This document shows positions 1,681-35,996 of a stretch of DNA of 39,986 bases, piece after piece; the first letter of the stretch is position 1, and each line of letters begins with the position of its first letter. Under the pieces are notes generated by a model. It saw nothing but the letters and a program-made list of their open reading frames with translations. It was not told where the DNA came from and did not search any database. The stretch covers positions 1-39,986 of the forward strand of contig JBBDXP010000009.1 of assembly GCA_040902285.1 (NCBI GenBank), read 5' to 3'. The position numbers and the translations under genes are program-made. The DNA comes from Candidatus Spechtbacterales bacterium. GTDB lineage: Bacteria > Patescibacteriota > Minisyncoccia > Spechtbacterales > 2-12-FULL-38-22.

Positions 1681-1711
1681 AAAATAAACTTTTTATTTTT
1701 GACAAATATAT

Positions 1712-2007: not shown

Positions 2008-2033
2008 GCCACGCCTGGGCGTGGCCGAATCAT

Positions 2034-2072
2034 GCGCTCGTAGCTCAACTGGTTAGAGCACACGGCTTATAC
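2034..2072 (+). pseudogene. 5' half (acceptor to anticodon loop) of a tRNA with a cttatac anticodon loop, truncated
   Basis: gcgctcg-ta-gctcaactggttagagc-a-cacgg-cttatac forms a perfect acceptor 5' strand, D-arm, anticodon 5' stem and loop. The sequence then departs from any tRNA 3' half. Confidence 0.6.
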
Positions 2073-2177
2073 ACGAGGATAGTGAGCGAAAAGAAAGGTT
2101 TACTTTCTTTTCCGAACGACGCAGTGTATATAAAATATAAATGGCAGCGAGGAAGAAATAGGAGTGTGCGCGTATAT

Positions 2178-2251
2178 GCGCGTGTAGCTCAGTTGGTTAG
2201 AGCACGGAGCTTATACCTCCGCGGTCCTTGGTTCGAGTCCAAGCACGCGCA
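2178..2251 (+). tRNA. tRNA-Ile(TAT)
   Basis: Manual cloverleaf: gcgcgtg/cacgcgc acceptor, D-loop agttggtta, anticodon stem cggag/ctccg with loop cttatac (anticodon TAT), T-loop ttcgagt. The tRNA is flanked by a 12-nt complementary leader and trailer (ggagtgtgcgcg ... cgcgcacactcc). Confidence 0.75.
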
Positions 2252-2292
2252 CACTCCTATTTCGACCGAGTGAACCATTTATATAAAATATA

Positions 2293-2328
2293 TCCGTGCG
2301 GTTCCAGGTTCAAGTCCTGGCGGGCGCA
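2293..2328 (+). pseudogene. 3' half of a tRNA that can pair with the 5' half at 2034-2072
   Basis: ccgtg-cggtt-ccagg-ttcaagt-cctgg-cgggcgc-a. The ccgtg segment pairs with cacgg of the 5' half, and cgggcgc pairs with gcgctcg through one G-U wobble. Confidence 0.55.
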
Positions 2329-2348
2329 CAGTAATATAATTACCATAT

Positions 2349-2423
2349 GCCTGGGTAGCTCAGTGGTAGAGCAGTGGCCTGAAGAGCCTCGTGTCGGGTG
2401 TTCAATTCACCCCCCAGGCACCA
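2349..2423 (+). tRNA. tRNA-Phe(GAA), CCA encoded
   Basis: gcctggg/cccaggc acceptor, anticodon loop ctgaaga, T-loop ttcaatt, 3' a-cca. Confidence 0.85.
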
Positions 2424-2428
2424 CACAT

Positions 2429-2502
2429 GGGCGCTTAGCTCAGTTGGCTAGAGCGACTCGTTTACACCGAGTAGGTCGGGGGTTCGAGCCCCTCAGCGCC
2501 CA
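2429..2502 (+). tRNA. tRNA-Val(TAC)
   Basis: gggcgct/agcgccc acceptor, anticodon stem actcg/cgagt with loop tttacac, T-loop ttcgagc. Confidence 0.85.
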
Positions 2503-2705
2503 CAAATCACATAGTGATTTTGGGCGTGGGGGCGAGAACCCAAGAAAGGGGTCGGGAAAACATTTGTTTTCCCGCCTGCGTGGCCGAAGCCACTTCGTCG
2601 AGGCGAAGGCCCGTGGCGGAACAATTAAAACCGAGGGGCTTCGGCCGTGAGCTCAGCCGAACGGTTTTAAGGAGCGAAGCGACGGGTTCTACGAACGCAG
2701 TGAGG

Positions 2706-2724
2706 GAGCCCCTCAGCGCCCACA
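2706..2724 (+). repeat. 19-nt direct repeat of the tRNA-Val 3' end
   Basis: gagcccctcagcgcccaca at 2486-2504 is repeated at 2706-2724, ~220 bp downstream. The intervening sequence is GC-rich with several UUCG/GAAG-type tetraloop hairpins. Confidence 0.8.
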
Positions 2725-2732
2725 GCAAAATC

Positions 2733-2803
2733 GCGGGTGTAGTATAGTGGTAATACACCACCTTGCCATGGTGGAGCCGAGGGTTCGATTCCCTTCACCC
2801 GCT
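2733..2803 (+). tRNA. tRNA-Gly(GCC)
   Basis: gcgggtg/cacccgc acceptor, anticodon stem ccacc/ggtgg with loop ttgccat, T-loop ttcgatt. The 3' end cccgctcaaa recurs at ~2851-2860 within a pair of small hairpins. Confidence 0.85.
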
Positions 2804-2921
2804 CAAAATTATGAAATAATTTTGAGCGAGGCTCGCTCATCTTCGATGAGCGGCCCGCTCAAATTGCAAAATAGCACATTGTGTGCTATTTTATTATTAG
2901 CACATTCAAAGGAGTAAATAG

Positions 2922-3113
2922 GTGGAAGAAAAAGCAAAAGACGGCTGCTCGCATGCATGTACTTGCGAATGTCACAAGAACGATAGTGGAGCCAAACATA
3001 TAGTTTCGTGTTGCTTTGAATGTGAAAGATGTCACCAGCAGATATCTGAAATGTCTGCTAGCAAACACTTTGCCCTTTGCCACCGTTTGTTCTTTGTTTT
3101 TCCACCGTACTAG
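2922..3113 (+). CDS. Hypothetical small Cys/His-rich protein (63 aa, GTG start)
   Basis: A GGAG RBS lies 8 nt upstream of the GTG. The product has 11 Cys and 6 His in 63 aa, arranged in CxC, CxxC and CC motifs. A palindrome (aatagcacattgtgtgctatt) plus a direct half-site repeat sit just upstream. Confidence 0.35.
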   Translation: MEEKAKDGCSHACTCECHKNDSGAKHIVSCCFECERCHQQISEMSASKHFALCHRLFFVFPPY

Positions 3114-3150
3114 AAAGGAGGAGCCGTGGATAATACGCAGCTAAAACAAA

Positions 3151-3176
3151 AAGCCGGATAAAACCGGCTTTTATCG
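3151..3176 (+). terminator. Rho-independent terminator
   Basis: aagccgg-ataaaa-ccggctt followed by tttat. Confidence 0.6.
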
Positions 3177-3241
3177 TATCTTGATTTTATTGTGTTGTTG
3201 GGATATTATTATGCTCAGTTATTTTGTTGCGGGAGAGGTAA

Positions 3242-3418
3242 ATGACAAAGGAAGAATTGGACCAAATTGTAAAAAGGGATATGCCCGGATGGTCTTTGGC
3301 GGAAGATTTTCAGCTTAACCACAGGACCATAGGAGATGATTATATATTCATTGTGCGGAAAGGGTCAGATAGAAAGGTTGCCACCATTTCTAATGGTGCA
3401 ATTAAAAAAGCCGGATAA
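3242..3418 (+). CDS. Hypothetical small protein (58 aa)
   Basis: Read manually from the sequence: a GGAGAGG RBS precedes an ATG at 3242, giving MTKEELDQIVKRDMPGWSLAEDFQLNHRTIGDDYIFIVRKGSDRKVATISNGAIKKAG*. The ORF is below the 60-aa cut-off of the six-frame track and is followed by a terminator. Confidence 0.35.
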   Translation: MTKEELDQIVKRDMPGWSLAEDFQLNHRTIGDDYIFIVRKGSDRKVATISNGAIKKAG

Positions 3419-3425
3419 AACATCT

Positions 3426-4474
<1,049 letters not shown>

Positions 4475-4546
4475 AAATTACATTGACACAAAACATAAAA
4501 TATGATATAAACAACAGGTCTTCTTTGCGGAAGACTTTTTGTTTAT

Positions 4547-5221
4547 ATGGTTAGCAAACTCGGCCCTCTTCTTGTAAAGAAGGGGGTAAATACAATTAAA
4601 AAGATAAAAACCAGAAGCGTAAAAATACGCTTTGTTATCGGTTTAAGAAAATTTAAAACCTTGCGTATTTTGCCCAAGGTTTTGGTTGTTTTGGCCGGTA
4701 TGGCCTTTATACTTTCTGCCCAGTATTCTTTGGCTTATTACAATATTAATGCACTAGATTTAATATACGGCAGGTCTGTGTTTGTGAATGTTCCGGATTT
4801 TTCCGAAAATAGTGTGGATACGGCCATACAAAAACCAAGTCCGGCTTCTTATCTTGTCGGCGGAAACGCTTTTCTTGCGATATCTCCGCCTCCTATTGTA
4901 GTGCTTGAACCCACATATTCGGTCGAGAGAACCGTACTTATACCCATTACCGCTTATTCATCTACTACGGACCAAACAGACGCAAATCCGTTCATTACGG
5001 CTTCGGGAAGTCATGTGCGGGACGGCATAGTGGCTGCAAATTTTTTGCCCATTGGGACTAAAGTAAAAATACCGGAATTATATGGAGATAAAGTGTTTGT
5101 GGTGGAGGATAGGATGAATAAACGCTATTGGAACAAAATGGATATTTGGATGTCCACTAGGGCAGAGGCAAAAGCATTCGGGTTAAAGTATGTAAATGTG
5201 GATGTGATTCAGGAAGTGTAA
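4547..5221 (+). CDS. Membrane-anchored 3D-domain (MltA/YuiC-like) cell-wall protein
   Basis: An N-terminal TM helix is followed by a C-terminal 3D-domain signature: TASG...DGIVAANF...PIGTKVKIPELYGDKVFVVEDRMNKRYWNKMDIW. The start codon is uncertain. Confidence 0.65.
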   Translation: MVSKLGPLLVKKGVNTIKKIKTRSVKIRFVIGLRKFKTLRILPKVLVVLAGMAFILSAQYSLAYYNINALDLIYGRSVFVNVPDFSENSVDTAIQKPSPASYLVGGNAFLAISPPPIVVLEPTYSVERTVLIPITAYSSTTDQTDANPFITASGSHVRDGIVAANFLPIGTKVKIPELYGDKVFVVEDRMNKRYWNKMDIWMSTRAEAKAFGLKYVNVDVIQEV

Positions 5222-14841: not shown

Positions 14842-15213
14842 ATGCTGAACATAAAAAATTTATTTTATACAGTTCTGTTGCTTGTTTTAGTTGTTTCGGC
14901 CAATTCCGCGGATGCCGTTGTAGAAATGAACGGCGGAGGAGGAGGATCGGGGGGAACCACAATAAGATTGCCCAATCCTCTTAAGGCCTCTAATTTTAAC
15001 CAGCTTTTGGAGTCGGTGCTGAACCTGCTTTTGGTTTTTGCCATTCCTCTGTATGCCCTTATGGTGGTTATAGCGGGCTATTATTTTCTTTTCGGGGGGC
15101 AAAATCCGGCAAACAGAGTCAAATCATTGACTATATTTAAATATGCGACCATAGGCCTTGTATTTTTGCTTTTTTCCAGAGCTATTGTTGCACTTATACA
15201 AGGTTCGTTATAA
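14842..15213 (+). CDS. TrbC/VirB2-like pilin-family small membrane protein
   Basis: A signal peptide, a Gly-rich stretch and two C-terminal TM helices with FLFGGQNPANRVK, which is shared with the three downstream paralogs. Confidence 0.55.
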   Translation: MLNIKNLFYTVLLLVLVVSANSADAVVEMNGGGGGSGGTTIRLPNPLKASNFNQLLESVLNLLLVFAIPLYALMVVIAGYYFLFGGQNPANRVKSLTIFKYATIGLVFLLFSRAIVALIQGSL

Positions 15214-15300
15214 AATAAGATTAGGAGATGGGGGTGTGAGATACAAACATCCCTAATTTAAAAAGGTCGTTTTTATTCAAAAAATAAAAACAAAATATTT

Positions 15301-15789
15301 ATGAAAACAAAAACATTAACCAATGTATCAAGAATAGCGACGGTTGCATTTTTGTTGGCAGCGTTTTCCTTAATGCTTGCCGGAAATGTGTTGGCGCACG
15401 GAAACCACAGCGCCACAACAGACAAGTGTTCCTTAAGGGCGACTGTAAGCGCAACCGAGGCGAATGATTTGACCGGAAAGACCGTGGGAACGCACGCACC
15501 AAGCACAACGGGAGGCCTTGACCTCGTGGACCCGAATGTTGCCGGGGATCATGCCCTTATTTGCACATACGGACTTATTAAGTTCGTTACAAATGTTTTG
15601 CTTGTAACGGTGCTTGTGGTTGCGACATTGCTTATCGCTTACGCCGCATTTCTGTTTGTTACAGCGGGCCAGAGCCCGGAAAAAAGAGGCAAAGCACGAG
15701 ATTTTCTTATCTTTGCCATTGTCGGTTTGGTTATAGCAGCGGTAGCAAGCTTGATACCCACCATAGTTCGTGGAATTATCGGAGTGTAA
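15301..15789 (+). CDS. TrbC/VirB2-like pilin-family protein, paralog 1
   Basis: Signal peptide (…LAHG), a ~70-aa exposed region with two Cys, then two TM helices (AAFLFVTAGQSPEKRGKARDF). A terminator hairpin follows. Confidence 0.6.
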   Translation: MKTKTLTNVSRIATVAFLLAAFSLMLAGNVLAHGNHSATTDKCSLRATVSATEANDLTGKTVGTHAPSTTGGLDLVDPNVAGDHALICTYGLIKFVTNVLLVTVLVVATLLIAYAAFLFVTAGQSPEKRGKARDFLIFAIVGLVIAAVASLIPTIVRGIIGV

Positions 15790-15813
15790 TTGCTTTAAGC
15801 GATTCAATCCCAA

Positions 15814-15842
15814 AAACACCCCTTAGCGGGGTGTTTTTGTTA
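15814..15842 (+). terminator. Rho-independent terminator
   Basis: aaacacccc-ttagc-ggggtgttt followed by ttgtt. Confidence 0.7.
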
Positions 15843-15939
15843 TAGGGGTGAAAACGGGGTTGTATTGCAATCAATATTTGTGTAAAATAAAATTATCATT
15901 GATTTTATCGATTTTAAAATACTTATAAGTAAAATAATT

Positions 15940-16425
15940 ATGATAAAAATATTAAAAGCGCCAAAAGCCATTATTGTAACATTTGTTTTAGCGGGAATAC
16001 TTTTTGGTACGGTTCCCGGTGTGTTGGCTCATGGAACACACACAACGTCGTTAGCAGGCAGCGGGTATTGTCTGTTAAGAGTTACCGTTTCTGCCGGTGA
16101 CGCGCAACAACTTACGGGCAGATCTGTGGGTACGCACCCCGCCGGTTACAGGCTTAGTTTAACTGAGCCAACCATAGGTGGAGAACACGCGCTGATATGC
16201 GCCTACGGCCTTATCGGATTTATAACAAATGTGCTCCTTATATTTATACTTGTGGTTGCTGCGGCGTTTATCGCTTATGCCGCGTTTCTGTTTGTTACAG
16301 CGGGCGCCAATCCGGCCACCCGGACGAAAGCCAGGGACTTTTTCCTGTATGCCGTTATAGGTTTGATTGTGGCTCTTTTGGCAAGCCAGATCCCCACCCT
16401 TGTCAGGGGAATTCTCGGAGTATAA
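15940..16425 (+). CDS. TrbC/VirB2-like pilin-family protein, paralog 2 (divergent exposed region)
   Basis: Same architecture as paralog 1. The TM region is conserved and the exposed region has diverged (YCLLRVTVSAGDAQQLTGRSVGTHPAGYRLSL...). Confidence 0.6.
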   Translation: MIKILKAPKAIIVTFVLAGILFGTVPGVLAHGTHTTSLAGSGYCLLRVTVSAGDAQQLTGRSVGTHPAGYRLSLTEPTIGGEHALICAYGLIGFITNVLLIFILVVAAAFIAYAAFLFVTAGANPATRTKARDFFLYAVIGLIVALLASQIPTLVRGILGV

Positions 16426-16451
16426 AAATTAATTATTAAATAAAAATTAAC

Positions 16452-16928
16452 ATGACAAAAATTACGAAAATATCAAGAATTGTCATTGTTGCCTTCGCAC
16501 TTGCCGGTCTTCTTGTGGCACCAAGCGTGTTGGCGCACGGAAGCCACACCGCTACAACAAACAAGTGTTCCTTAAGGGCGACTGTAAGCGCAACCGAGGC
16601 GAATGATTTGACCGGAAAGACCGTGGGAACGCACGCACCAAGCACAACGGGAGGCCTTGACCTCGTGGATCCGAATGTTGCCGGGGATCATGCCCTTATT
16701 TGCACATACGGATTTATTAAGTTCGTTACAAATGTTTTGCTTGTAGTTATTCTTGTTGTGGCATCTCTGCTTATCGCTTATGCCGCATTTCTGTTTGTTA
16801 CAGCCGGCGGGAATCCGGCCAATAGAGAGAAAGCGCGTTCCTATCTTATATTTGCGGTTATAGGCCTTGTTGTTGCTGTTGTGGCAGCGCTTATTCCAAC
16901 CATTGTCAGAGGAATCATCGGGGTATAA
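16452..16928 (+). CDS. TrbC/VirB2-like pilin-family protein, paralog 3
   Basis: Carries a ~190-bp tract nearly identical to paralog 1 (16558-16745 versus 15421-15608). Confidence 0.6.
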   Translation: MTKITKISRIVIVAFALAGLLVAPSVLAHGSHTATTNKCSLRATVSATEANDLTGKTVGTHAPSTTGGLDLVDPNVAGDHALICTYGFIKFVTNVLLVVILVVASLLIAYAAFLFVTAGGNPANREKARSYLIFAVIGLVVAVVAALIPTIVRGIIGV

Positions 16929-25571: not shown

Positions 25572-25721
25572 TTTTTGTAGATTACTATATTGTTGTATGC
25601 TTAACAACTGAACAAAGTTGACTTATGACTATTTTTCAGTAAAATATATAGGTGGCACTGGTCCCATCGTCTTGCAGCCTGCTCTTTGTAATCCAAAATC
25701 AATTTGACGGAGCGAATTTTA

Positions 25722-25800
25722 AAAAGATTCGAGGCCTGAGGAGCGAAACGCACATATGTGCATGAGCGACGAAAACAAAGAATCTTTTTAAAATTCGCCC
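25722..25800. repeat. 19-bp perfect inverted repeat forming a long hairpin with a nested palindrome
   Basis: gcgaattttaaaaagattc (25725-25743) pairs with gaatctttttaaaattcgc (25778-25796). The loop contains gcacatatgtgc. Confidence 0.7.
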
Positions 25801-25832
25801 GCCCAACCCCAACTATGAATAATTAACTTTGC

Positions 25833-25907
25833 GGTCCCATCGTCTAGTCCGGCCTAGGACGCCAGGTTTTCATCCTGGTAACACGGGTTCGAATCCCGTT
25901 GGGACCG
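25833..25907 (+). tRNA. tRNA-Glu(TTC)
   Basis: ggtccca/tgggacc acceptor, 3-bp D stem gtc/gac with loop tagtccggcctag (the E. coli Glu-like architecture), anticodon loop ttttcat, T-loop ttcgaat. The tRNA is flanked by a perfect 15-nt complementary leader and trailer (aataattaactttgc / gcaaagttaattatt). Confidence 0.85.
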
Positions 25908-26055
25908 CAAAGTTAATTATTTGAGATTTTAGGGAAACAAAAAAGCACGCTATCTGCCGCGTTGCTCCTCCTCGAAATAGCGCTATTGCTATTATTCCTT
26001 CGTCGTTGCGCCTTGCATCTAGCATACTTTTTTGTTTTCAAATTGATTTTAGATT

Positions 26056-26131
26056 GCAAAGAGCAGGCTAAGGCCTAGGACGCCAGGTTTTCATCCTGGT
26101 AACACGGGTTCGAATCCCGTTGGCTCTGCCA
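26056..26131 (+). pseudogene. tRNA-Glu-like pseudogene: 52-nt exact copy of the tRNA-Glu 3' portion joined to a non-matching 5' side
   Basis: 26072-26123 is identical to 25850-25901 of tRNA-Glu. The acceptor 3' strand (tggctct-g-cca) does not pair with the upstream sequence. The inverted repeat caaagagcaggct (26057-26069) matches agcctgctctttg (25676-25688), which sits next to a 13-nt tRNA-Glu 5' fragment (25660-25672). Confidence 0.6.
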
Positions 26132-26244: not shown

Positions 26245-27615
26245 ATGCCGCCGAAGAATTCCTTAAATTCTCAGCCGGAAGATTTTACGATTAAGCTTGC
26301 CGACGGCCTTCCTCCAAGATGGCAGAAATTTGAGGAAGAGATTAAAGGTATAGTTTTTGACCAGGAACGCCCGATACGAAAGGTAACACGCACTCTTATG
26401 GCCTTGGAAGCGGGACTGCATGATCCGCGCAGGCCTCCAGACCCATTTATATTTGCCGGTCCGCCCGGTTCAGGCAAGACATATCTTGCAGAAATCATAG
26501 CCAAGGTTTGGCTAGGCGAACCTAAGCGAGAAGGCGAGATTGGTCCTCTTATCGTTTTGTCGGGAGAAAACTTCGGCCGTGAGCATGAGGGCTCTACCCT
26601 AAAGGGCGCCCCGCCCAGCTATATCGGGTTTGGACAAAAAACTCCTTTGGAAGATACAGGTGTTTTTGACAAGATGAGGCGTTTGGAGAAATTGTGGGAA
26701 ATTGCTTTTGATTGGGAATATGAAATGGAGAAAAAAGGATTCCGTTCGTTGTCGCCGTCCGCGAGAGATGAGTTTTTTGAACGCGCCAAGAGAATGATGT
26801 ATAAAAAAGCCAAAAGTATGGGGCCGTATCGATCGGTATTGCTGGTTGATGAATTTGAAAAAATGCACATTTCGGTCCAAAAACAATTTCTTGGCATATT
26901 GTCCAGCGGCGGCTTAAAACTGCATTCCGGCAAGTTTGTTGATTTTAGGGGCACTCTTATAATATTTACCACCAACATAGGTTCCGAAGAAATCAACAAA
27001 CTGCTTGAAAACAGGGGAATCGGCTTTGTTTCCACAACTCTTAGCGGAAAATCTCAGGATCAGATAAACCAGCGCATCTATAAGACGACACGCTCAAGAA
27101 TAGAAAAAGATATAGATCCGGCACTCTTTAGCCGCATAGGACATGACGGCATAGTGGTATTCCACGCGCTTCCGAGAGAAACTCTTTCCAAGATACTGGA
27201 TTATGAGATTACCCGCGTGCAGGCAAAACTTTTGAGTGAGGATCTTGGCCCCGTTAGAATTTATGTTTCCGAAGAAGCCAAAGAATTGATATTGAATGGC
27301 GCTGATACTCCGCGCGAGGGAGCCCGGCAGATAGGGCGCCTTGTGACCAAATACATATCTGATCCGCTTGCGCGGGTAATAGAGTCAGATGAACTTAGAG
27401 GCGGGGATGAAGTGTTAATTGCCGTCGAAGGTTCTAAAATACAGCTTAGGCGGCTTCCAAGGCCTACTAGCCCGAAATTGCCACCCCTCCGGCGTCCGGC
27501 AAGAACAGGCGATATGGACACCTTGGAAAAAGAAATGTTTGATGATTTGACAAAAGAATTCAAAAATTTGCTCAAAGAAAAATACCCCATTGTAGCACCC
27601 GAAGAAGAAGATTAA
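26245..27615 (+). CDS. Single-module Clp/Hsp100 D2-type AAA+ ATPase
   Basis: An AAGGAGG RBS precedes the ATG. Walker A GPPGSGKT, KGAPPSYIGFG (matching the IGAPPGYVGY block of ClpA/B/C D2), Walker B LLVDEFEKMH, FVDFRGTLIIFTTNIGS, the VVFHALPRETLSKI sensor region and a GAR sensor-2 are all present. There is no N-domain, no D1 module and no ClpX zinc finger. Confidence 0.75.
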   Translation: MPPKNSLNSQPEDFTIKLADGLPPRWQKFEEEIKGIVFDQERPIRKVTRTLMALEAGLHDPRRPPDPFIFAGPPGSGKTYLAEIIAKVWLGEPKREGEIGPLIVLSGENFGREHEGSTLKGAPPSYIGFGQKTPLEDTGVFDKMRRLEKLWEIAFDWEYEMEKKGFRSLSPSARDEFFERAKRMMYKKAKSMGPYRSVLLVDEFEKMHISVQKQFLGILSSGGLKLHSGKFVDFRGTLIIFTTNIGSEEINKLLENRGIGFVSTTLSGKSQDQINQRIYKTTRSRIEKDIDPALFSRIGHDGIVVFHALPRETLSKILDYEITRVQAKLLSEDLGPVRIYVSEEAKELILNGADTPREGARQIGRLVTKYISDPLARVIESDELRGGDEVLIAVEGSKIQLRRLPRPTSPKLPPLRRPARTGDMDTLEKEMFDDLTKEFKNLLKEKYPIVAPEEED

Positions 27616-27671: not shown

Positions 27672-27861
27672 CGAAAAGCCCCGATATTCTTCCCTCGAAC
27701 CGCGGTCCGATTTCTCCGGCGGAAATCGTCCGCTTCCTCTCAGCGCAAAATCCTTCGAAAACCGTATTTGCCTGTCAAGGTCCGTCCTTGACAGGCAAAT
27801 CTCAGGAACCAAGCTTTTGCGCTTCCGAGAGATTCGCGGATAAGAATATCGGAGCTTTTCG
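27672..27861. mobile_element. MITE-like ~190-bp non-coding element with 20-bp terminal inverted repeats (19/20 match) and a central perfect 15-bp palindrome
   Basis: TIR-L is cgaaaagccccgatattctt (27672-27691). TIR-R is aagaatatcggagcttttcg (27842-27861), whose reverse complement cgaaaagctccgatattctt matches TIR-L at 19 of 20 positions. The centre carries atttgcctgtcaagg-tccgt-ccttgacaggcaaat (27766-27800). The element is GC-rich relative to the genome. The homologous intergenic region upstream of the Lon-like gene (33231-33343) lacks it. Confidence 0.5.
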
Positions 27862-27879
27862 ACGAGCGGGGATGAGGGG

Positions 27880-27908
27880 TTGACTCTCATGCTGTGGATA
27901 TCTATAGT
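27880..27908 (+). promoter_or_regulatory. Sigma70-type promoter TTGACT-17-TATAGT, part of a ~70-bp module duplicated at 33273-33343
   Basis: ggggttgactctcatgc…gatatctatagttaacctagattgatagtaccttgaaaaaggagg is near-identical to the sequence upstream of the Lon-like gene. AGGAGG lies 5 nt before GTG 27947. Confidence 0.65.
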
Positions 27909-27946
27909 TAACCTAGATTGATAGTACCTTGAAAAAGGAGGACGAA

Positions 27947-29842
27947 GTGGCCGAAGAACCTCAAATACAAAATACTCAAAAGAATTCTAAAGAATTCGAT
28001 GTACTTATCGCAATATCCACAGAACTGCGGGAAAAAGCGAACGGTATGTTAAGTGAGGATTTTGTCCGTCATATAGACGATATAACAGAAAAAGCGGATG
28101 AACTTGAGACCGCGCGAAAACTGCAGGCGCAGGAGGCGTCGAGGGATATCCAGCAAAATAAGCTGGCCTATCTTAATAAAATAAGAGAACTTAGCATAGA
28201 ACTAAATCAACTTAGCCGAATGCTGAGCGCTCTTAAGGAACAGCCCCCGCTGATGTCTGCCAAATTTGTTAGATTTGTCCGTTATCATGAAATAGAAGAA
28301 TACGGCAAGAAGGTAAAGATTCCAGTTGTGGATATTGTAAATTCCAGCGGTTCCAACGCGCGCGTTTTTGTGCATCCGGAGCTGGATGTTTCCAATGTTA
28401 AGTATGGACAGCGCGTTCTTGTAAGCGCGGGCAACATGACTATAATGGAAATTTTGCAAGAATTCGAGGTTATAGGACAAGAAGCATATGTCGAGGCTCT
28501 CTTGGAACCCGATTTTGAAGGTAAGCGTGTTTTGGTATCGGAAGGCCAGCTGGACATGAAAATAGTGGCGCATCTGTCCTCTTCCGTGGAAGATAAAGAA
28601 ATGGAAGAAGGCACTAGGGTTCTTGTAGATACAAAGACATCTTTGGTCGTGGAAGTGCTTCCCGAGCATGAGAGCCGCCGTTACATTGTGGGCGAAATCC
28701 CAAATGTCACTTTTTCTGATATCGGAGGCCTGGACGGCATTATCGCGAGGATAGACGAGCATGTTATATGGCCTATAATCTATCCCGATGTGTGGGAAAA
28801 AATAGGATTGGATTCTCCAAAAGGATTTGTGCTTGCCGGCCCGCCGGGTGTGGGCAAAACCATGATTGCCAAGGCGTTGGTAAACTATCTTAATGAAAAA
28901 CTCGAGGAAGTTCATGGCAAACCCGTACAGGGCCGTTTCTTCCACATTGCCGGACCTGAAATTCAAAACAAATATGTGGGCGAGACCGAACGCATTATGC
29001 GCGAGATATTTGCCCAGGCGGCAAAGAATGCTTCTCCGCTAAGCCCCTCCTTGGTATTTTTTGACGAAGCGGACGCGCTTTTCCCAAGACGCGGTTCGGG
29101 AGTCTCCTCCGATGTTGAAAAGACGAATGTTACCCAATTTACAGCCCTTATGGACGGCCTTGAGACCAGGAGCAACATTATAGTTGTTTTGGCGACAAAC
29201 CGCCCCGAACTTTTGGATCCCGCGGTCATACGGCCCGGGCGCTCGGACTTCACTGTGGATGTTCCGCGGCCCAACGAAGAAGCCGCCAAAGCCATTTTTG
29301 CCAAATACATAAGGCCCGAATGGGGGCAGATAAATCCTAAATACGATCAGGAGGTTTATATTCCAAAAGACAAAAAGGGCAATACGCGCGTTGATGACTC
29401 CGGAAGTGATATAAAACTTTACTTCGGACACAAGCCGCAAGAGGTTGTGGATTATCTTATCGCTAAAGCAACAGCGCGCATGTACGATCTGGACAATCCA
29501 AGAAACAAATTTATCAAACTCAAGTTTAGGGATTATTCGGAAAAAACTCTCCGTTACGGCGATTTTGCCTCCGGCGCTATGATTAAAAATATAGTGGATC
29601 GTGCCAAGAGATTTTCCGTTCATGATCATAAGGTTGGAGGTGAAGAACTCGGGATAACTCTCGTACACCTGTACAAAGCCATTGAAGAGGTCTTTTCTGA
29701 GCTTAGGGGTCCTTCCGGAGCCGGCGATTCCAGCACCTGGCTTGAAATAGAAGGCCATGTCCGCGGAAATAACGTTACGGGAATAGAATTTCTATCCAGA
29801 GATGCGGATGATTCTGACGATGATGAAGAGCCCATTTTATAA
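27947..29842 (+). CDS. ARC/Mpa-like (proteasome-associated-ATPase family) AAA ATPase
   Basis: An N-terminal coiled-coil (…LSIELNQLSRMLSALKEQ…) is followed by a tandem OB-fold inter-domain (…NARVFVHPELDVSNVKYGQRVLVSAGNMTIMEIL…). The single AAA module has Walker A GPPGVGKT, KYVGETERIMREIF, and Walker B/arginine finger VVLATNRPELLDPAVIRPGR. The C-terminus …DDEEPIL has no GQYL/HbYX docking motif. Confidence 0.8.
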   Translation: MAEEPQIQNTQKNSKEFDVLIAISTELREKANGMLSEDFVRHIDDITEKADELETARKLQAQEASRDIQQNKLAYLNKIRELSIELNQLSRMLSALKEQPPLMSAKFVRFVRYHEIEEYGKKVKIPVVDIVNSSGSNARVFVHPELDVSNVKYGQRVLVSAGNMTIMEILQEFEVIGQEAYVEALLEPDFEGKRVLVSEGQLDMKIVAHLSSSVEDKEMEEGTRVLVDTKTSLVVEVLPEHESRRYIVGEIPNVTFSDIGGLDGIIARIDEHVIWPIIYPDVWEKIGLDSPKGFVLAGPPGVGKTMIAKALVNYLNEKLEEVHGKPVQGRFFHIAGPEIQNKYVGETERIMREIFAQAAKNASPLSPSLVFFDEADALFPRRGSGVSSDVEKTNVTQFTALMDGLETRSNIIVVLATNRPELLDPAVIRPGRSDFTVDVPRPNEEAAKAIFAKYIRPEWGQINPKYDQEVYIPKDKKGNTRVDDSGSDIKLYFGHKPQEVVDYLIAKATARMYDLDNPRNKFIKLKFRDYSEKTLRYGDFASGAMIKNIVDRAKRFSVHDHKVGGEELGITLVHLYKAIEEVFSELRGPSGAGDSSTWLEIEGHVRGNNVTGIEFLSRDADDSDDDEEPIL

Positions 29843-29898: not shown

Positions 29899-29927
29899 TT
29901 GACACACGACCGCCAAACGACTATACT
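29899..29927 (+). promoter_or_regulatory. Sigma70-type promoter TTGACA-17-TATACT upstream of the dop-like gene
   Basis: ttgaca cacgaccgccaaacgac tatact. The 5'UTR attagtaccttaaaaaggagg shares the agtacctt(g/a)aaaaaggagg motif with the ARC and Lon-like leaders. Confidence 0.6.
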
Positions 29928-29962: not shown

Positions 29963-31579
29963 ATGCCTGACAAGCCGCGCAAGATAATAATTGGCGCTGA
30001 AACCGAATATGGAATATTTGCGACAGAAAACGGCCAAATACTTGATAATGAGGCCTTAGGACTTGTGAGAGAGGCCGAAAATGTAACCAAAGATTTTTTC
30101 CTTCGCCCGCTTGAGGGCATAGAAGATACCGAAGAACATGAAAATCTTGATTCTATGACTGATGAGGATTTTTTGCGCCAACCGGAAAGTTATCAAAGTT
30201 CCGGAGAAAGGCAGAGGCGCGGCCTTACCGGTTTTGTTCTCTCAAACGGATGCAGATTCTATGTTGATATGGGTCATCCGGAGTATTCAATTCCCGAAAC
30301 AACAAATCCCATGGATGCTCTTGTCGCGCAAAAAGCGGGAGACAGGATAGTTGAGCTTTGCAGAAGATTATTTGAGGAAAGATTAAAGAACGAAAATAGG
30401 AATATTTCGATTCGTTTGGATAAAAACAATAGCGACGGTAAAGGGAACAGCTATGCCGCGCACGAAAATTATTCTCTTACCCCCGAAACCTTTACGGAAA
30501 TAACTAATCGTTATGGGTCAAGAGAGTTGGAAGATATTGTGTTGAATTTTTTCACCACGCGCCAGATAGTGACAGGGGCCGGAAAGGTTGGATACGAGAC
30601 AGGAAGACCCGTTCCATACCAAATAAGCCAGCGTGCGGATTTTATTGAAAAGGAAAAAAGCTTAAACACGGTCGAAAAGAGGGGGATAATAAATTTGCGG
30701 GACCATTCCTATGCCGGATACGATGATGTCCGCAGATTGCATGTTATATGCGGAGACGGCAACATGTCCGAATTGTCTCTGTATCTTAAATTCGGCACAA
30801 CAGCGCTTATTTTAATGATGCTTGAAAGCGGATTTATACAGAGCGAAGGAAGTTCTGTTTTGATTCGCATGCAAAATCCCGTCCGCTCGTATAAAAATGT
30901 ATCAAGAGACCTTTCCCTGGGCCACAAGATATTTTTTGAGGACGGTTCTAAAAGGACCGCTTTAGCCATACAGGAGGAATTTTATTCTCTGGCCAAAAAA
31001 TTTACCGATGGAAACGATATTGATCCTATATGGCGCGATGTCGCAGACAAGTGGGAAAAGGTTTTGCACGGTCTTGCCGGGGAAAGAAATTCTGATGAAT
31101 GGGCCGGCAATCTGGACTGGGTTAAAAAAGAAACCATACTCAAACGGCATCAGGAGAAAAAAGGAGTTTCTCCGCTTCATCACACATGCCGCGCCGTGGA
31201 TCTTCAGTACCACAACATAAATCCCGAAAAAAGCATTTATTGGCGCCTGGCTGAAAGAGGAGACATACTTTTGTTTGCCACCAAAGCCGATATAGAGAGG
31301 GCTATTAATGAGCCACCTTCGGACACAAGGGCGTGGTTCAGAGGGCAAACCGTTAAACAGTTTAGAAATGTTCTGGACGGTATCGGCTGGCAATATATTA
31401 AATTTGCCGATAAATACATTTTTATGGGCAATCCATTTTCTGGTTCAAAAGAAGCAGCAGAGAGTATTTTTGCGGGGGTTTCTTCTCCGGAAGAATTTAT
31501 TGAAAGATTGTCGAAAGCAATTGAACGGAAGGAGAGTGGATTGGAGGGCTTTAGTGTCGGAGAAGGGTGGTTGATATAA
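29963..31579 (+). CDS. dop: Pup-ligase-family protein, Dop-like (depupylase/deamidase-type)
   Basis: The N-terminal IIIGAETEYGIF strand (Dop-type E-Y-G) is followed by a ~45-aa insertion before the conserved RFYVDMGHPEYS block, consistent with a Dop loop. The carboxylate-amine-ligase fold is retained at 538 aa. The Dop versus PafA call is an inference. Confidence 0.7.
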   Translation: MPDKPRKIIIGAETEYGIFATENGQILDNEALGLVREAENVTKDFFLRPLEGIEDTEEHENLDSMTDEDFLRQPESYQSSGERQRRGLTGFVLSNGCRFYVDMGHPEYSIPETTNPMDALVAQKAGDRIVELCRRLFEERLKNENRNISIRLDKNNSDGKGNSYAAHENYSLTPETFTEITNRYGSRELEDIVLNFFTTRQIVTGAGKVGYETGRPVPYQISQRADFIEKEKSLNTVEKRGIINLRDHSYAGYDDVRRLHVICGDGNMSELSLYLKFGTTALILMMLESGFIQSEGSSVLIRMQNPVRSYKNVSRDLSLGHKIFFEDGSKRTALAIQEEFYSLAKKFTDGNDIDPIWRDVADKWEKVLHGLAGERNSDEWAGNLDWVKKETILKRHQEKKGVSPLHHTCRAVDLQYHNINPEKSIYWRLAERGDILLFATKADIERAINEPPSDTRAWFRGQTVKQFRNVLDGIGWQYIKFADKYIFMGNPFSGSKEAAESIFAGVSSPEEFIERLSKAIERKESGLEGFSVGEGWLI

Positions 31580-32976
31580 TGAAAGACAGAGCCGTTGGTA
31601 TAGAAAATGAATTTGGCGTAATGCTTAAGGATGATTTTGGCAATTTTAGTTCTCAAGAGAACGAAATGCTGGCCATTAACAGCATTCCTCGTGAAAATTT
31701 GCCTCAAGGGGGTGGAATGTCCAACGGACGTTTCTGGCTTGCCAACGGAGGCAGTGTATACATAGACCTGGGCCATCCGGAATATGCTTCTCCCGAATGT
31801 CTCAGGTTGCGTGATCTGATTGCTGTAAGCCGCGCGGGAGAGAGGATTTGTTCCCGTATGTTCCATTACGCTGTTAGTAATGGAAGGTATTGGCAGCTTT
31901 TTAAGAATAATTTGGAAATTAGCGCCGAAGGAGGAGAAGGAAATTCGTTCGGATGTCATGAAAATTATCTCATTCACGGATATAAGCCGGAAGACGAGGT
32001 CATGCATACGCATCTTCTTCCCTTTCTGATAACTCGGCAGATATTGGACGGAGCGGGATGGTGGGCTTCGGACGGCAGATTTTCATTTTCTCAAAGAGCG
32101 TTGATTTTGGGCACCGTGGCGGCAATGGGTACCACGGAGGGGATAAGCCGTCCCATCATAAATCTTAGAGACGAGCCCCATATACAGAATAGGGAAGGAA
32201 TGAGCAGGTTGCATCTCATTTTGGGCGATGCCAACATGCTGGACTGGGCCTTGTATCTTAAATTCGGTACCACCTCCCTTGTACTGGCCATGCTTGAAGA
32301 AGGCCATATATTCAGGGATACGTGCCAAAATCCCATTGAAGCCATGCGCAGAGTGGCGTTTGATAAGACCGCGCGGAAACGGCTATTGAAATTTAGCGGG
32401 CGCGGGAAAATGAGCGCGCTAGAAGTGCAGGAATTTTACCTTGCCAAAGCCGAAAAATACGTCTCTATAACTGATTTTGCAAGCTACGAAAGCAGATTGG
32501 AAGCGCTCCAAACCGTGTGCATGTGGCGCGAGGCCTTAAATGCGATAAAAAATCGCGATACCGCATGGATGCTCGGACGGCTTGATTGGGCAACAAAGCT
32601 GTATCTTGGAAACAAAGAGTGGTCGAACAAAAAAAATTCGGGCGCTAGTGAAATGGACATCAAAAAACGCGTTGATATTCTTTATCACGCCGTGACCGAC
32701 ACAAGATTGCGCGACCGAATATATGCCAAGTGGCCGAACAGGCAGCTGGTCGGCGGACAGGAAATTGAGTATATGATAAATAATCCCCCACTGGACACCC
32801 GCGCGAGAATAAGGGCGTTGTTTATTGATCTCTGCTCAAAAAAACAATTCGGCACGGATAAGGACATATCTGTGAATTGGTCCAAAATAGTATATAGAGG
32901 CAAGGCGTTTAACTTGGGATACCCTTTAGACAAGGATAATCTCGAGGTTGAGAAACTTATCAGAAATCTCTTGTAA
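31579..32976 (+). CDS. pafA: Pup-ligase-family protein, PafA-like
   Basis: VGIENEFGVM (PafA-type E-F-G) with no loop insertion; SVYIDLGHPEYASPE; 466 aa. Its ATG overlaps the dop-like stop as TAATG, which suggests translational coupling. The track ORF begins at an upstream GTG (31567). Confidence 0.7.
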   Translation: MKDRAVGIENEFGVMLKDDFGNFSSQENEMLAINSIPRENLPQGGGMSNGRFWLANGGSVYIDLGHPEYASPECLRLRDLIAVSRAGERICSRMFHYAVSNGRYWQLFKNNLEISAEGGEGNSFGCHENYLIHGYKPEDEVMHTHLLPFLITRQILDGAGWWASDGRFSFSQRALILGTVAAMGTTEGISRPIINLRDEPHIQNREGMSRLHLILGDANMLDWALYLKFGTTSLVLAMLEEGHIFRDTCQNPIEAMRRVAFDKTARKRLLKFSGRGKMSALEVQEFYLAKAEKYVSITDFASYESRLEALQTVCMWREALNAIKNRDTAWMLGRLDWATKLYLGNKEWSNKKNSGASEMDIKKRVDILYHAVTDTRLRDRIYAKWPNRQLVGGQEIEYMINNPPLDTRARIRALFIDLCSKKQFGTDKDISVNWSKIVYRGKAFNLGYPLDKDNLEVEKLIRNLL

Positions 32977-33035
32977 AATTGTAAAATAATCTGTAATAAT
33001 AAGAGCAAATGCAACCGGAAAGGAGGATTGCCGTG

Positions 33036-33230
33036 CCGCCGCAAGAGCAGATAAGGCCTAATCGCAAAAGGGACGATTCCAGCGAAGACCAGGAATATGT
33101 CCGCAAAGATAAAGATGATGAAGAAGATTCCTCCGAAGAGGAGCTAGACGATGAGGAGCTGAACATCGACGATCTTTTGGAAGAATCAGAAGAACTTACA
33201 AAGAAGTATAAGCAGAAAGGCGGAGAGTAA
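33036..33230 (+). CDS. pup: Prokaryotic ubiquitin-like protein Pup homolog, C-terminal GGE
   Basis: A GAAAGGAGG RBS lies 6 nt before GTG 33036. The 65-aa product is acidic and low-complexity, ending …DDLLEESEELTKKYKQKGGE. This resembles the actinobacterial Pup C-terminus (…DDLLDEIDDVLE…YVQKGGQ/E) that binds Mpa and is ligated by PafA. The track ORF (33009) adds 9 N-terminal residues from an ATG that has no RBS. Confidence 0.75.
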   Translation, partial: PPQEQIRPNRKRDDSSEDQEYVRKDKDDEEDSSEEELDDEELNIDDLLEESEELTKKYKQKGGE

Positions 33231-33241
33231 GCAGTACTTTT

Positions 33242-33266
33242 AGCCCCGTTTTAACGGGGCTTTTTT
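33242..33266 (+). terminator. Rho-independent terminator
   Basis: agccccg-tttta-acggggc followed by tttttt. Confidence 0.75.
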
Positions 33267-33274
33267 ATTGGGGG

Positions 33275-33303
33275 TTGACTCTCATGCCCTAGATATCTAT
33301 AGT
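33275..33303 (+). promoter_or_regulatory. Sigma70-type promoter TTGACT-17-TATAGT (second copy of the module at 27877-27947)
   Basis: ggggttgactctcatgccctagatatctatagttaacctagattgatagtaccttgaaaaaggagg. AGGAGG lies 7 nt before GTG 33344. Confidence 0.65.
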
Positions 33304-33343
33304 TAACCTAGATTGATAGTACCTTGAAAAAGGAGGTGGTATT

Positions 33344-35818
33344 GTGCCTGCCGAAGAAAGAGACGGTATACGGGAGTTAAATCCTGAAGAGCTTTGCCGG
33401 AAATGGCAGCCCGAAGAGTTTAATTCCGAAGTTGAGCCCGATACGGGATTTTCCAACGGAGTTTGGCTGGGTATCAGCCAAGATCGCTTGTTCAAAGCGC
33501 TTGATTTCGGTTTGAGCAGAGACGCACCGGACCATCATATATTTGTTTCTGGAATAACGGGCCCAACGGTTTTGGAGGCCCTTGAGAAGTTTGTTCTGGA
33601 TTTTGAAAACAAGAACACTGGAGAACTGTCCCAGTTGCGGGATTGGTGCTATGTATATAATTTTGACAATCCCCGCAACCCCGTTGCGATTCCTCTGCCC
33701 GCGGGCAGAGGAAAGGTACTGCGCTTTAAGATGAAAAAGAATCTGTCTCGTTTGCAGGATGCCATACCAAATGCTCTCAACAGCGAGAATGTCGCGCAGG
33801 AACATTTGCGGGCGACCAGTGAATTCAATGATTGGTTTTCGGCCGCGCAGGAGAGCACAAGGAAAAGAGCTGCCGAAAACCAAGAGGCGATAGTGGAGTT
33901 CGGTGATTCCGGCTTTGACGTCAACATCATTCCGTGGCGCTATAAGAGTTTGAACGAAGAAGAAAGGGAAGAGCTGGGCAGAACCCTCGCTTCCAAAGAA
34001 AAACAGCGCGACAGGAACACGATAAGCAAATACATGCCCGAGATTATAGCAATACGGAATGAATTTCTCAAAAGAGATGCAAAGTTGCGCGAGGAATTAA
34101 ACCGAATAAATCAAAGTGCCATAAAAGAAGCCATACAAGGGGTGTTTAGAAGTTTGCGCGGAAAACTCAGCGAAAACAGCAGAAGTACCGCTCTTACAAG
34201 ATATATAGACAGCGTTGAGAAATTTGCCACAGAAAATTACCCAATTTTTCTTCAAGGCAAAAATAAAACGGTACCTAGAGTGGCCAAACAGGAGCCTGAC
34301 ATCTTTATTCCCTGGGAAGTAAATGTGTTTGTCGATAACAGCAACGCCAAAGGCCCGCCCGTTGTCATAGAGCTTGATCCGACATTCGAAAACCTTGTCG
34401 GAAGGATTGAAAAAGTGGTAATGGCGGGTGGAATGGTTTCAACGGACCATACCAGAATAGCAGCCGGTTCGCTCGCGCAGGCAAACGGCGGATATCTGCT
34501 TTTGAATATTCGCGATGTTCTTGTGCGGCCGGGAGCTTACGAAGCTCTTAAGAACGCTGTAAAGAATAAAACTCTGGAAATTTCCGAACTCATGTCCGCT
34601 ATGGGTTATGGTTCAATGTCTTCTCTGGATCCGACACCCATTCCGCTTAATCTTAAGCTTGTAGTTACGGGCATTCGAGGTTTGTGGGAGTATCTTTCAC
34701 ATGCGGATCCGGAATTTTCAAGCATATTTAAGATAAAGGCGGATGTAAATCCGGATGTTGATCGCAGTCCCGACGAGGCATCGGCGTGGGCCCGGTGGAT
34801 GACTAAGCAGTATTCCGAACACGGGCTTCTGCCGCTTGAAAACGATGCCATGGGGCGGATAATTGATTACGCTTCGCGTGTTGCCGGTTCCAAAAAGCGT
34901 ATAGCCACTAATTTTGGGCTTTTGCAGGATTTGATGAGCGAATCTTCTTATGTTGCCAAAAAAGAAGGTGCTGAAAGAATAAGCGCCCAACATGTGCGTA
35001 GTGCCATAGCGGACAGAAAATTCCGACTCAGTTTGTATCAGGAACGCCGTCTTAGGAGCATACAAGAAAGCCACACGCTGATAGATGTAGAGGGTGGCGC
35101 GGTTGGTCAAATTAACGGCTTAGTTATTTTTGGGGGCAGGACTGAAGATGCTTGGTTTGGCGGTCCTAGCCGTATAACGGCGCAGGTTTCTATGGGAAAG
35201 CCGGGTTTTATCAATATTCAGCGAGAATCCAAAATGTCCGGACCTTATCTGGATATGGCCGACGCCATAGTCAACCGTTATCTTATGGGTACATATGCTA
35301 AGAAGTATCCCATTGCTTTACAGATAAGCATCGCCTTTGAGCAATCATATGGCGGGGTGGACGGAGACAGTGCCTCTCTCGCGCAGTTGTATGCCACGCT
35401 TTCGGCTGTGGCCGAAGTGCCAATACGCCAGGATGTTGCCATAACGGGTTCTCTTAACCAAAGAGGGGCCGTGCAGGTCATTGGCGGAGTTAACGATAAG
35501 ATAGAGGGATTTTTTGACGCATGCCTTGCCAAAGGCGGGCTTTCGGGAACCCAGGGAGTTATTATTCCCGAAGGCAATGTTTCTGATTTGATGCTTCGCG
35601 AAGATGTGGTTGAAGCTGTCCAAAATGGCAGGTTCCATGTTTGGGCAGTAAGCCATGTGAGCGGAGGTATCAAGATTCTACTGGGTATGCCCGCAGGAGA
35701 GCGTGATAACGAAGGCAAATTCCCCGAAGGTACATTTAACGCGATTGTGGATGAAAAACTGCAAAGTTATGCCCGCAACGCGAAAAACTTCTTTAAAGAT
35801 GAAGAAGCGGAAAAATAA
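33344..35818 (+). CDS. Lon-like (S16 family) serine protease with a degenerate AAA-like domain lacking Walker A (LonC-like)
   Basis: The C-terminal protease domain has DGDSASLAQLYATLSAV (compare the Lon PKDGPSAG catalytic Ser block) and ITGSLNQRGAVQVIGGVNDKIEGF (compare the Lon TGEITLRGRVLPIGGLKEK catalytic Lys block). No GxxxxGK[ST] motif occurs anywhere in the 824 aa. Confidence 0.7.
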   Translation: MPAEERDGIRELNPEELCRKWQPEEFNSEVEPDTGFSNGVWLGISQDRLFKALDFGLSRDAPDHHIFVSGITGPTVLEALEKFVLDFENKNTGELSQLRDWCYVYNFDNPRNPVAIPLPAGRGKVLRFKMKKNLSRLQDAIPNALNSENVAQEHLRATSEFNDWFSAAQESTRKRAAENQEAIVEFGDSGFDVNIIPWRYKSLNEEEREELGRTLASKEKQRDRNTISKYMPEIIAIRNEFLKRDAKLREELNRINQSAIKEAIQGVFRSLRGKLSENSRSTALTRYIDSVEKFATENYPIFLQGKNKTVPRVAKQEPDIFIPWEVNVFVDNSNAKGPPVVIELDPTFENLVGRIEKVVMAGGMVSTDHTRIAAGSLAQANGGYLLLNIRDVLVRPGAYEALKNAVKNKTLEISELMSAMGYGSMSSLDPTPIPLNLKLVVTGIRGLWEYLSHADPEFSSIFKIKADVNPDVDRSPDEASAWARWMTKQYSEHGLLPLENDAMGRIIDYASRVAGSKKRIATNFGLLQDLMSESSYVAKKEGAERISAQHVRSAIADRKFRLSLYQERRLRSIQESHTLIDVEGGAVGQINGLVIFGGRTEDAWFGGPSRITAQVSMGKPGFINIQRESKMSGPYLDMADAIVNRYLMGTYAKKYPIALQISIAFEQSYGGVDGDSASLAQLYATLSAVAEVPIRQDVAITGSLNQRGAVQVIGGVNDKIEGFFDACLAKGGLSGTQGVIIPEGNVSDLMLREDVVEAVQNGRFHVWAVSHVSGGIKILLGMPAGERDNEGKFPEGTFNAIVDEKLQSYARNAKNFFKDEEAEK

Positions 35819-35843: not shown

Positions 35844-35871
35844 AGGCCCGCGCAAAGCGGGCCTTTATTTT
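35844..35871 (+). terminator. Rho-independent terminator
   Basis: aggcccgc-gcaaa-gcgggcct followed by ttatttt. Confidence 0.75.
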
Positions 35872-35877: not shown

Positions 35878-35985
35878 TGCAACTAAAGATATCCCTTTTC
35901 AAAAGCTAAAACAGATTGCGGCCCGCAAGTTATGTACCCCGCCCCATCCACCCCAAGCTTTTGAAAAGGGATATCTTTAGTTGCA
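35878..35985. repeat. 30-bp perfect inverted repeat forming a ~108-nt hairpin
   Basis: tgcaactaaagatatcccttttcaaaagct (35878-35907) pairs with agcttttgaaaagggatatctttagttgca (35956-35985). The 48-nt GC-rich loop contains the nested palindrome ttgcgg-c-ccgcaa. Confidence 0.8.
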
Positions 35986-35996
35986 CTATATAGGGG

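Follow-up and report, generated by a model that had tools for sequence, protein, structure and literature searches.

The gene at positions 33,344 to 35,818 of a 39,986-nt stretch of DNA from a metagenome-assembled Candidatus Spechtbacterales genome (Patescibacteriota, also Minisyncoccota; positions 1 to 39,986 of the 88.5-kb contig JBBDXP010000009.1 in GenBank assembly GCA_040902285.1) encodes a Lon-type protease of the LonC subfamily and stands directly behind a set of pupylation genes. The whole stretch is called the window below. Pupylation is usually seen as an actinobacterial path into the 20S proteasome, which raises the question of what becomes of pupylated proteins in proteasome-less hosts such as Corynebacterium. 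Membership of the window protein in the known LonC subfamily is secure by its domain and structure matches, and the protein falls in a branch that has lost the nucleotide-binding loop (P-loop, or Walker A motif). LonC is the best candidate for the enzyme destroying Pup-tagged proteins, because its gene lies directly after a Pup operon that has an unfoldase (ARC) but no proteasome. That it acts as an energy-independent peptidase chamber replacing the 20S proteasome downstream of Pup and ARC is given slightly better than an even chance, the coupling being suggested by gene context.

The 824-aa protein is matched by four Pfam models, all above their curated cutoffs: LonC_helical (3.5e-15), AAA_32 (1.1e-39), LonB_AAA-LID (4e-19) and Lon_C (7.1e-10). 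The top PDB sequence match is MtaLonC, the LonC of Meiothermus (4fwd and others; E 1.2e-78, residues 316-782), followed by archaeal LonB 3k1j (E 2.4e-24). An AlphaFold2 model built on 15 homologues (mean predicted local distance difference test score, pLDDT, 78) shows long helices at residues 122-178 and 217-297. Foldseek matched this model best to MtaLonC (8k8v_A, E 2.6e-52, template modelling score 0.75 when normalised to the target) and next to TonLonB (E 2.4e-31). The start codon is GTG, 7 nt past the Shine-Dalgarno (SD) sequence AAGGAGG. An NCBI protein entry identical at 100% is annotated merely as 'ATP-binding protein'.

Other Lon-type identities were considered and set aside. LonA is ruled out by the lack of a Pfam match to the LON N-terminal domain and by a TIGR00763 score of 26.7 bits against a cutoff of 608. 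LonB is ruled out by a TIGR00764 score of 141.6 bits against a cutoff of 516.6 and by the lack of Walker motifs and of a hydrophobic segment; no membrane segment was found in the protein, the maximum 19-residue hydropathy being 1.17. A BrxL or other defence role is ruled out as well, with none of the PADLOC families matching at E<=0.001. By the profile searches the protein belongs to Lon S16 and, within it, to LonC.

A sequence-only reading of the same DNA had recognised an S16 Ser-Lys dyad in the GDSAS and NDKIEG motifs. This dyad holds up: both motifs align to the dyad of MtaLonC and are kept in homologues. Ser676 and Lys719 are invariant in the 15 aligned homologues (alignment A1). In all 163 family sequences of the tree described below the serine motif is GDSA[STA] or GPSAS, and the dyad position is Lys in each listed variant. 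The CX3GLX(G/E) insertion between helix alpha3 and strand beta9 is specific to LonC (PMC3391209). It is found in the window protein, and its Cys727 is invariant in alignment A1. All the sequence-level features defining LonC that were tested are present, namely the S16 dyad, the insertion, the AAA-like helical domain and the lack of canonical Walker A and B motifs.

The same reading had reported no Walker A motif in the protein, and re-inspection by regular expressions and by family alignment likewise finds no P-loop. The expressions [AG]x4GK[ST], GK[ST] and hhhhDE have no match in the whole LonC protein; the same expressions recover GPPGVGKT and LVFFDE in the ARC gene and GPPGSGKT and VLLVDE in the neighbouring Clp-like gene. 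Among 121 sequences comprising the closest homologues, 117 carry GxxGTG(K/R)x at the P-loop position. The Lys/Arg is lost in the query, P0002 (70% identical) and P0003 (40%) only, all three of which read G[IL][TS]GPxVL. LonC proteins as a family are not generally P-loop-free. The Walker B-like form GGYLLLNIRD is typical across the LonC family; the corresponding GGYLILDA of MtaLonC, from which the Glu is absent, has been named 'Walker B-like' (PMC3391209).

MtaLonC itself has no ATPase activity and degrades unfolded substrates only, and its authors liken it to the free 20S core particle (PMC3391209). Its Walker A-like GPPSLGKHE retains the Lys, and each hexamer binds six nucleotides, which are not hydrolysed (PMC3391209). 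Its closed hexamer is driven by ATPgammaS (PMC3391209, PMC13069640). The window LonC is predicted not to bind nucleotide, because its GITGPTVL has neither Lys nor Arg, and its ATP independence, which the sequence-only reading had proposed, is suggested by homology with MtaLonC. Its Walker motifs depart further from the canonical form than those of MtaLonC. The Walker A comparison with MtaLonC relies on the published alignment (PMC3391209) and the family alignment, since the N-terminal 321 aa taken alone gave no significant PDB sequence match.

An exhaustive HMMER search of 1.84 billion cluster representatives returned 1624 LonC relatives at E<=1e-30. A neighbour-joining tree without support values was built from the best 150 of these 1624 together with context-derived sequences, 163 in total. 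Of the 163 sequences, 21 form the clade that includes the query, and none of these 21 has the canonical GxxGxGK. The clade apparently consists of Patescibacteria throughout, and LonC identity between its diverged members is 35-40%. An insertion before the conserved GxxQxR motif is common to the three clade members present in alignment A1 and agrees with the neighbour-joining clade. A LonC subclade in which the P-loop is lost altogether is new.

Gene context was readable for seven lineages of this clade, the window included. In five of them LonC follows directly after ARC, one or more Pup ligases and Pup, and the flanks vary. Loci L001, from the closest relative, and L091-94, whose LonC is 70% identical to that of the window, have the gene order of the window. 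In L095 (LonC 35% and ARC 46% identical; locus cut upstream) the order is ARC, an additional PafA paralogue, Dop, PafA, Pup ending in GGQ, a terminator-like hairpin, a promoter and LonC. In L099/L100, from a metagenome-assembled genome labelled Patescibacteria with a GC content of 52%, ARC, Dop, PafA, Pup (GGE), a hairpin and LonC follow each other between flanks unrelated to those of the window (genes for L19 and a racemase on the upstream side, one for cation efflux on the downstream side). In L105, ARC, a single Dop-like ligase and Pup (GGE) precede LonC. The C-terminus of Pup is GGE or GGQ in all five Pup-linked lineages. For P0003 (L002) the contig stops short on the upstream side, which truncates the context there.

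The sequence-only reading had described the LonC gene as the direct successor of Pup; in the window the gene does follow Pup, after 113 nt. A further claim of that reading, that the protease would need a separate unfoldase, gains from the ARC-ligase-Pup-LonC order being kept in five lineages; the dependence itself is something we still infer. Two upstream unfoldase candidates had also been named. Both have intact Walker A and B motifs, and the Clp D2-like one falls outside the conserved module, because it is present in the window's own lineage (window, L001, L091) only and absent from L099 and L105.

No member of the Proteasome family was found at any of the Pup-LonC loci (window, L001, L091, L095, L099 and L105). 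In the window this covers the open reading frames (ORFs) that were scanned against Pfam, and no clpP gene was found in these 40 kb. As a control, 80 LonC loci of other phyla, drawn from GTDB species representatives across a wide range of phyla, were taken with 10-kb flanks. Not one of them has a Pup ligase or ARC gene in these flanks, and almost all retain Lys or Arg at the P-loop position. The repeated placement of LonC directly after pup, or after a module with an E1-like protein, in Patescibacteria is new.

The E1-like case is that of L106/L107 (L106 1418-9790). Here LonC and a family-2 glycosyltransferase (GT2) are preceded by genes for a 685-aa AAA ATPase, a 622-aa protein without assignment, a 226-aa protein, a ThiF/E1-like protein (Pfam ThiF 4.8e-21) and a 95-aa protein ending in GGVL. 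The 226-aa protein has a JAMM-like E...HSHx7SSxD motif that is conserved at 40% identity; its AlphaFold2 model has a pLDDT of 39. Pfam and PDB sequence searches with the 226-aa and the 95-aa GG-tailed proteins gave no matches, and in L106 the assignments as ubiquitin-like (Ubl) and JAB proteins stay at the level of motifs. The block may be a ubiquitin-like tagging module standing where other lineages have their Pup genes.

In the proposed mechanism, Pup would be made ligation-ready as Pup-GGE and attached by PafA to target lysines, and Dop would take it off tagged proteins. The ARC hexamer would bind Pup and unfold the tagged protein with ATP. LonC would be a self-compartmentalising Ser-Lys peptidase that is probably unable to unfold substrates itself, because the nucleotide-binding loop of its AAA-like ring is entirely lost. 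It would cut the unfolded chain after ARC docks on the LonC ring or by capturing a released chain. The tagging steps correspond to those described for known systems, in which PafA joins Pup-GGE to lysines, Dop takes Pup off again, and ARC, on binding Pup, unfolds the conjugate (PMC3511204, PMC8223512). That ARC passes chains on to LonC, physically or functionally, and that LonC substrates depend on Pup is what we infer from this arrangement.

The ARC C-terminus of the window (...DDDEEPIL) has no GQYL docking motif. EEPIL, EEAIL and EEPIL endings occur in three lineages (window, L001 and L095), and L099 and L105 end in AEEDD and ELTIK. A conserved docking motif of the EE[PA]IL type at the ARC C-terminus was therefore rejected. 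Hand-over through solution is at least as likely as docking of ARC on LonC, since ARC has no GQYL and the acidic EE[PA]IL tail is missing in L099 and L105. With the E1-like lineage included, Patescibacteria might carry a so far overlooked tag-directed proteolysis machine in which a P-loop-less LonC ring replaces the 20S particle and is fed by an AAA+ unfoldase reading Pup or, in the sister lineage, an E1-activated GG-tailed protein. This broader reading, a convergent 'Lon proteasome' with interchangeable tagging chemistries, is tentative and falls a little short of an even chance.

Upstream of ARC and of LonC lie two copies of a 66-nt module, with 63 of 66 positions identical (95%). The module consists of a -35 box TTGACT, a 17-nt spacer, a -10 box TATAGT, a leader of about 25 nt and AAGGAGG; its 28-nt core is present in the window at just these two places, where 100 shuffles gave an expectation of 0. 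The near-identical promoter and 5' untranslated region (5'UTR) that the sequence-only reading had assigned to the two genes are thus present, and they are confined to this genome and not kept in relatives. ARC and LonC share expression signals in this genome, and matched expression therefore fits. A conserved operator or regulon was rejected, as the module is absent upstream of LonC in L001, L099 and L105; the identity of the copies looks like a recent, genome-specific duplication and not a conserved regulatory feature.

The 113 nt between Pup and LonC hold a terminator-like hairpin (33242-33261) and then the promoter-like site. A further, strong promoter-like sequence, TTGACA-17-TATACT (11/12), lies at 29899-29927 between ARC and Dop and differs from the ARC/LonC module. 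Because of this site, ARC, the ligase-Pup genes and LonC may form three separate transcription units. A perfect 15-bp inverted repeat, ATTTGCCTGTCAAGG / CCTTGACAGGCAAAT, with a 5-nt loop is found at 27766-27800, about 80 nt upstream of the ARC -35 box. A weak third partial copy of the promoter core (78% of 23 nt) at 35969-35991, upstream of the glycosyltransferase gene, may be due to chance.

Several observations weigh against a Pup- and ARC-coupled LonC. All evidence for the coupling is gene context, and the five Pup-linked lineages are related and therefore not fully independent; the LonC tree carries no support values. A clade member (L103/L104) has no Pup genes, its LonC following PrkA-DUF444-SpoVR (L103 2908-10538), and seven other non-actinobacterial Pup loci, all metagenomic, have ARC and ligases and no LonC. 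The negative result for the 20S proteasome and ClpP covers 40 kb of the genome only. The ARC tail lacks GQYL and its own ending is not kept in L099 or L105, and the AAA-like ring of LonC covers the face where an unfoldase would dock. A terminator-like hairpin always sets LonC apart from pup as a separate transcription unit (window, L095, L099). The ARC and LonC upstream regions of L001 share only about 19 nt beside the SD sequence, and those of L099 and L105 share nothing.

Part of these observations would be expected if LonC, like MtaLonC, were a protease or chaperone for quality control that works by itself and without energy, clearing unfolded or damaged proteins and peptides, with the Pup adjacency being inherited synteny or a shared stress regulon. 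MtaLonC acts alone on unfolded substrates, and heat turns it into a chaperone (PMC3391209, PMC13069640). In every lineage the LonC gene has a promoter and a terminator to itself, the family is common in the absence of Pup, L103/L104 lack Pup as well, and the window further carries Hsp20, PrsW and FtsH genes. However, the pup-lonC adjacency outlasts changes in both flanks, in ligase number and in GC content, the alternative occupant of the slot is another module combining an AAA protein with tagging (L106/L107), and P-loop loss coincides with tagging contexts. Independent action of this kind is a serious possibility, yet on balance unlikely. That LonC instead regulates the tagging system, degrading free Pup, ligases or Pup remnants left after unfolding and not tagged substrates, appears very improbable. 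Disordered Pup would be a natural substrate for an enzyme cutting only unfolded chains (PMC3511204, PMC3391209), and the LonC gene immediately follows pup in five lineages; no specific evidence points to such regulation, which explains the AAA-plus-E1-like context no better than degradation of tagged proteins does.

Pairing of LonC with the ClpB-D2-like single-ring ATPase in place of ARC, as a two-component Clp-like protease, is quite improbable. This ATPase, encoded 5.7 kb upstream with Walker A and B intact, has a RGIGFVS loop about 55 residues past Walker B that is conserved in L001 and that we take to lie at the position of the ClpP-docking tripeptide of ClpA/ClpX. IGF loops are known to dock on ClpP and not on Lon. 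Only the window/L001/L091 lineage has the gene, L099 and L105 lack it, a terminator-like hairpin stands between it and ARC, and it does not share the promoter module. The view of LonC as a catalytically dead or decaying Lon remnant draws on the lost P-loop and on the rapid divergence (35-40% identity within the clade). It is next to negligible, given that neither Ser676 and Lys719 nor the motifs around them vary, that every lineage has a full-length ORF and that the fold is confident. The use of LonC as a peptidase chamber behind Pup and ARC continues to be favoured, at the strength given at the outset.

Features of the window around the LonC gene (residue numbers, res, refer to the LonC protein)
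Feature	Positions	Strand	Basis or remark
tRNA-Glu(UUC), complete, followed by the Clp-like gene on the 5' side of the block	25833..25908		
Single-ring ClpB-D2-like AAA+ ATPase	26245..27615	+	Pfam AAA_2 and ClpB_D2-small
Promoter, 5'UTR and SD of ARC gene, module copy 1	27876..27941	+	Orthologous module upstream of L001 ARC gene
ARC/Mpa-like AAA+ unfoldase	27947..29842	+	TIGR03689 pup_AAA 4.2e-110; Pfam AAA and Prot_ATP_ID_OB_C 1.8e-9
Dop-like depupylase/deamidase	29963..31579	+	Pup_ligase 1e-118; Dop model 370 bits vs PafA 285
PafA-like Pup ligase	31567..32976	+	Pup_ligase 7.5e-90; PafA model 265 bits vs Dop 226
Pup, 73 aa, C-terminus ...KYKQKGGE	33009..33230	+	Pfam Pup 0.0013, below cutoff
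Terminator-like hairpin with T-run after pup	33242..33268	+	Hairpin equivalents follow pup in L095 and L099
Promoter TTGACT-17-TATAGT, 5'UTR and SD of LonC gene, module copy 2	33271..33336	+	
LonC-family Lon protease gene, P-loop-less subclade	33344..35818	+	824 aa; Pfam, PDB and Foldseek matches
Degenerate Walker A position GITGPTVL (res 70-77)	33551..33574	+	Aligns with GLTGTGKT of homologues
Walker B-like stretch GGYLLLNIRD (res 382-391), no Asp-Glu	34487..34516	+	Aligns with MtaLonC GGYLILDA
Catalytic serine motif GDSAS (res 674-678, Ser676)	35363..35377	+	Aligns with MtaLonC D581-S582
Catalytic lysine motif NDKIEG (res 717-722, Lys719)	35492..35509	+	Aligns with MtaLonC K625 (NAKVEG)
LonC-specific insertion CLAKGGLSG (res 727-735)	35522..35548	+	Consensus CX3GLX(G/E), one extra Gly
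Terminator-like hairpin after LonC gene	35844..35864	+	

The TIGR03689 match of the window ARC falls below the equivalog cutoff. Its gene most likely starts at GTG 27947, which follows an SD sequence, and not at TTG 27929. For the Clp-like gene, ATG 26245 is the most probable start. The Pup ortholog of L095 matches Pfam Pup at 1.3e-6, above the cutoff. Past the hairpin that follows LonC lie a family-2 glycosyltransferase gene and then RecG on the minus strand. In L105 a PrkA-DUF444-SpoVR triad is encoded on the opposite strand beside the Pup module (1-4704).

Tandem Pup_ligase arrays were seen between uvrC and dnaJ/dnaK in uncultured bacteria (seven genes at L096 6545-17664, two at L098 2899-6187 and three at L101 10001-14774). 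Neither ARC nor LonC was found near these arrays, which are a different use of the Pup ligase family. A scan of genome contigs with the window PafA alone gave no matches.

The complete tRNA-Glu of the window (within 25653-26128) is flanked on one side by a 5' tRNA-Glu-like fragment and on the other by a repeat of its own 3' 52 nt. This copy (26072-26123) is an exact repeat that scores 35 bits with Rfam and is not called by ARAGORN. Complementary 12-nt segments occur at 25679-25690 and 26058-26069. The region resembles a split or duplicated tRNA, perhaps an integration scar just upstream of the Clp-ARC-Pup-LonC block. Elsewhere in the window, ARAGORN places at 2178-2252, within a cluster of five tRNA genes, a tRNA-Ile whose UAU anticodon is seldom seen in bacteria. 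Four tandem genes at 14842-16928, after a solute-binding protein gene, have weak or marginal matches to TrbC/VirB2 and T4SS_pilin (type IV secretion pilins).

If the proposed role is true, the ARC-ligase-Pup-LonC cassette gives a concrete answer on the fate of pupylated proteins for one large bacterial radiation. It would also provide a cellular role for the LonC family, the roles of such Lon-like proteases having been called unknown in the original MtaLonC paper, and it would be the first Lon-type chamber served by a separate unfoldase. The E1-like sister locus suggests that the peptidase may be the constant part and the tag exchangeable, which bears on the evolutionary assembly of ubiquitin-like degradation systems. 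Iyer et al. (2008), who defined the Pup ligase neighbourhoods, report no protease beside the Pup genes except the proteasome. A full-text literature search of 8 million papers found neither a link between LonC and pupylation nor one between pupylation and the Candidate Phyla Radiation (CPR), Patescibacteria or Parcubacteria.

Compared with MtaLonC/TTC1975 (MEROPS S16; 4fwd, 8k8v), the window LonC has the same four-domain layout, fold, Ser-Lys dyad, insertion, AAA-like helical hairpin and non-canonical Walker B. Unlike MtaLonC, with which it shares about 25% identity overall, it has GITGPTVL without the P-loop Lys/Arg, and it adjoins Pup, whereas no connection of MtaLonC with a tagging system has been reported. 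The AAA_32, LID and Lon_C domains are shared with archaeal LonB (TonLonB, 3k1j); LonB has functional Walker motifs and a membrane anchor, and the window LonC has neither.

As in the actinobacterial Pup-proteasome system, a clustered ARC with OB and AAA domains, paralogous Dop and PafA and a Pup ending in GGE are present. The locus differs in its Patescibacteria host, in having no prcB/prcA, in an ARC without GQYL and in LonC after pup. The canonical order arc-dop-pup-(prcBA)-pafA has been called rigidly conserved (PMC3511204). The window order is arc-dop-pafA-pup, whereas the actinobacterial pup sits between dop and prcB; a pupylation locus with this order and with a last gene unlike the actinobacterial canon is new. 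Corynebacterium likewise has pupylation genes and ARC without 20S genes, and its ARC has no proteasome-interaction motif (PMC3511204). Pupylation and ARC are thought to act there without degradation, for example in ferritin disassembly (PMC8223512). Unlike in Corynebacterium, a compartmentalised peptidase is conserved next to pup in the Patescibacteria loci. The combination of a tag, an AAA unfoldase and a chambered peptidase resembles the archaeal and eukaryotic SAMP/Urm1 Ubl-E1-AAA-proteasome pathways, to which L106 adds the likeness of a ThiF/E1-like and a GG-tailed protein. Unlike in those pathways, the peptidase is a Ser-Lys Lon and not a Thr proteasome.

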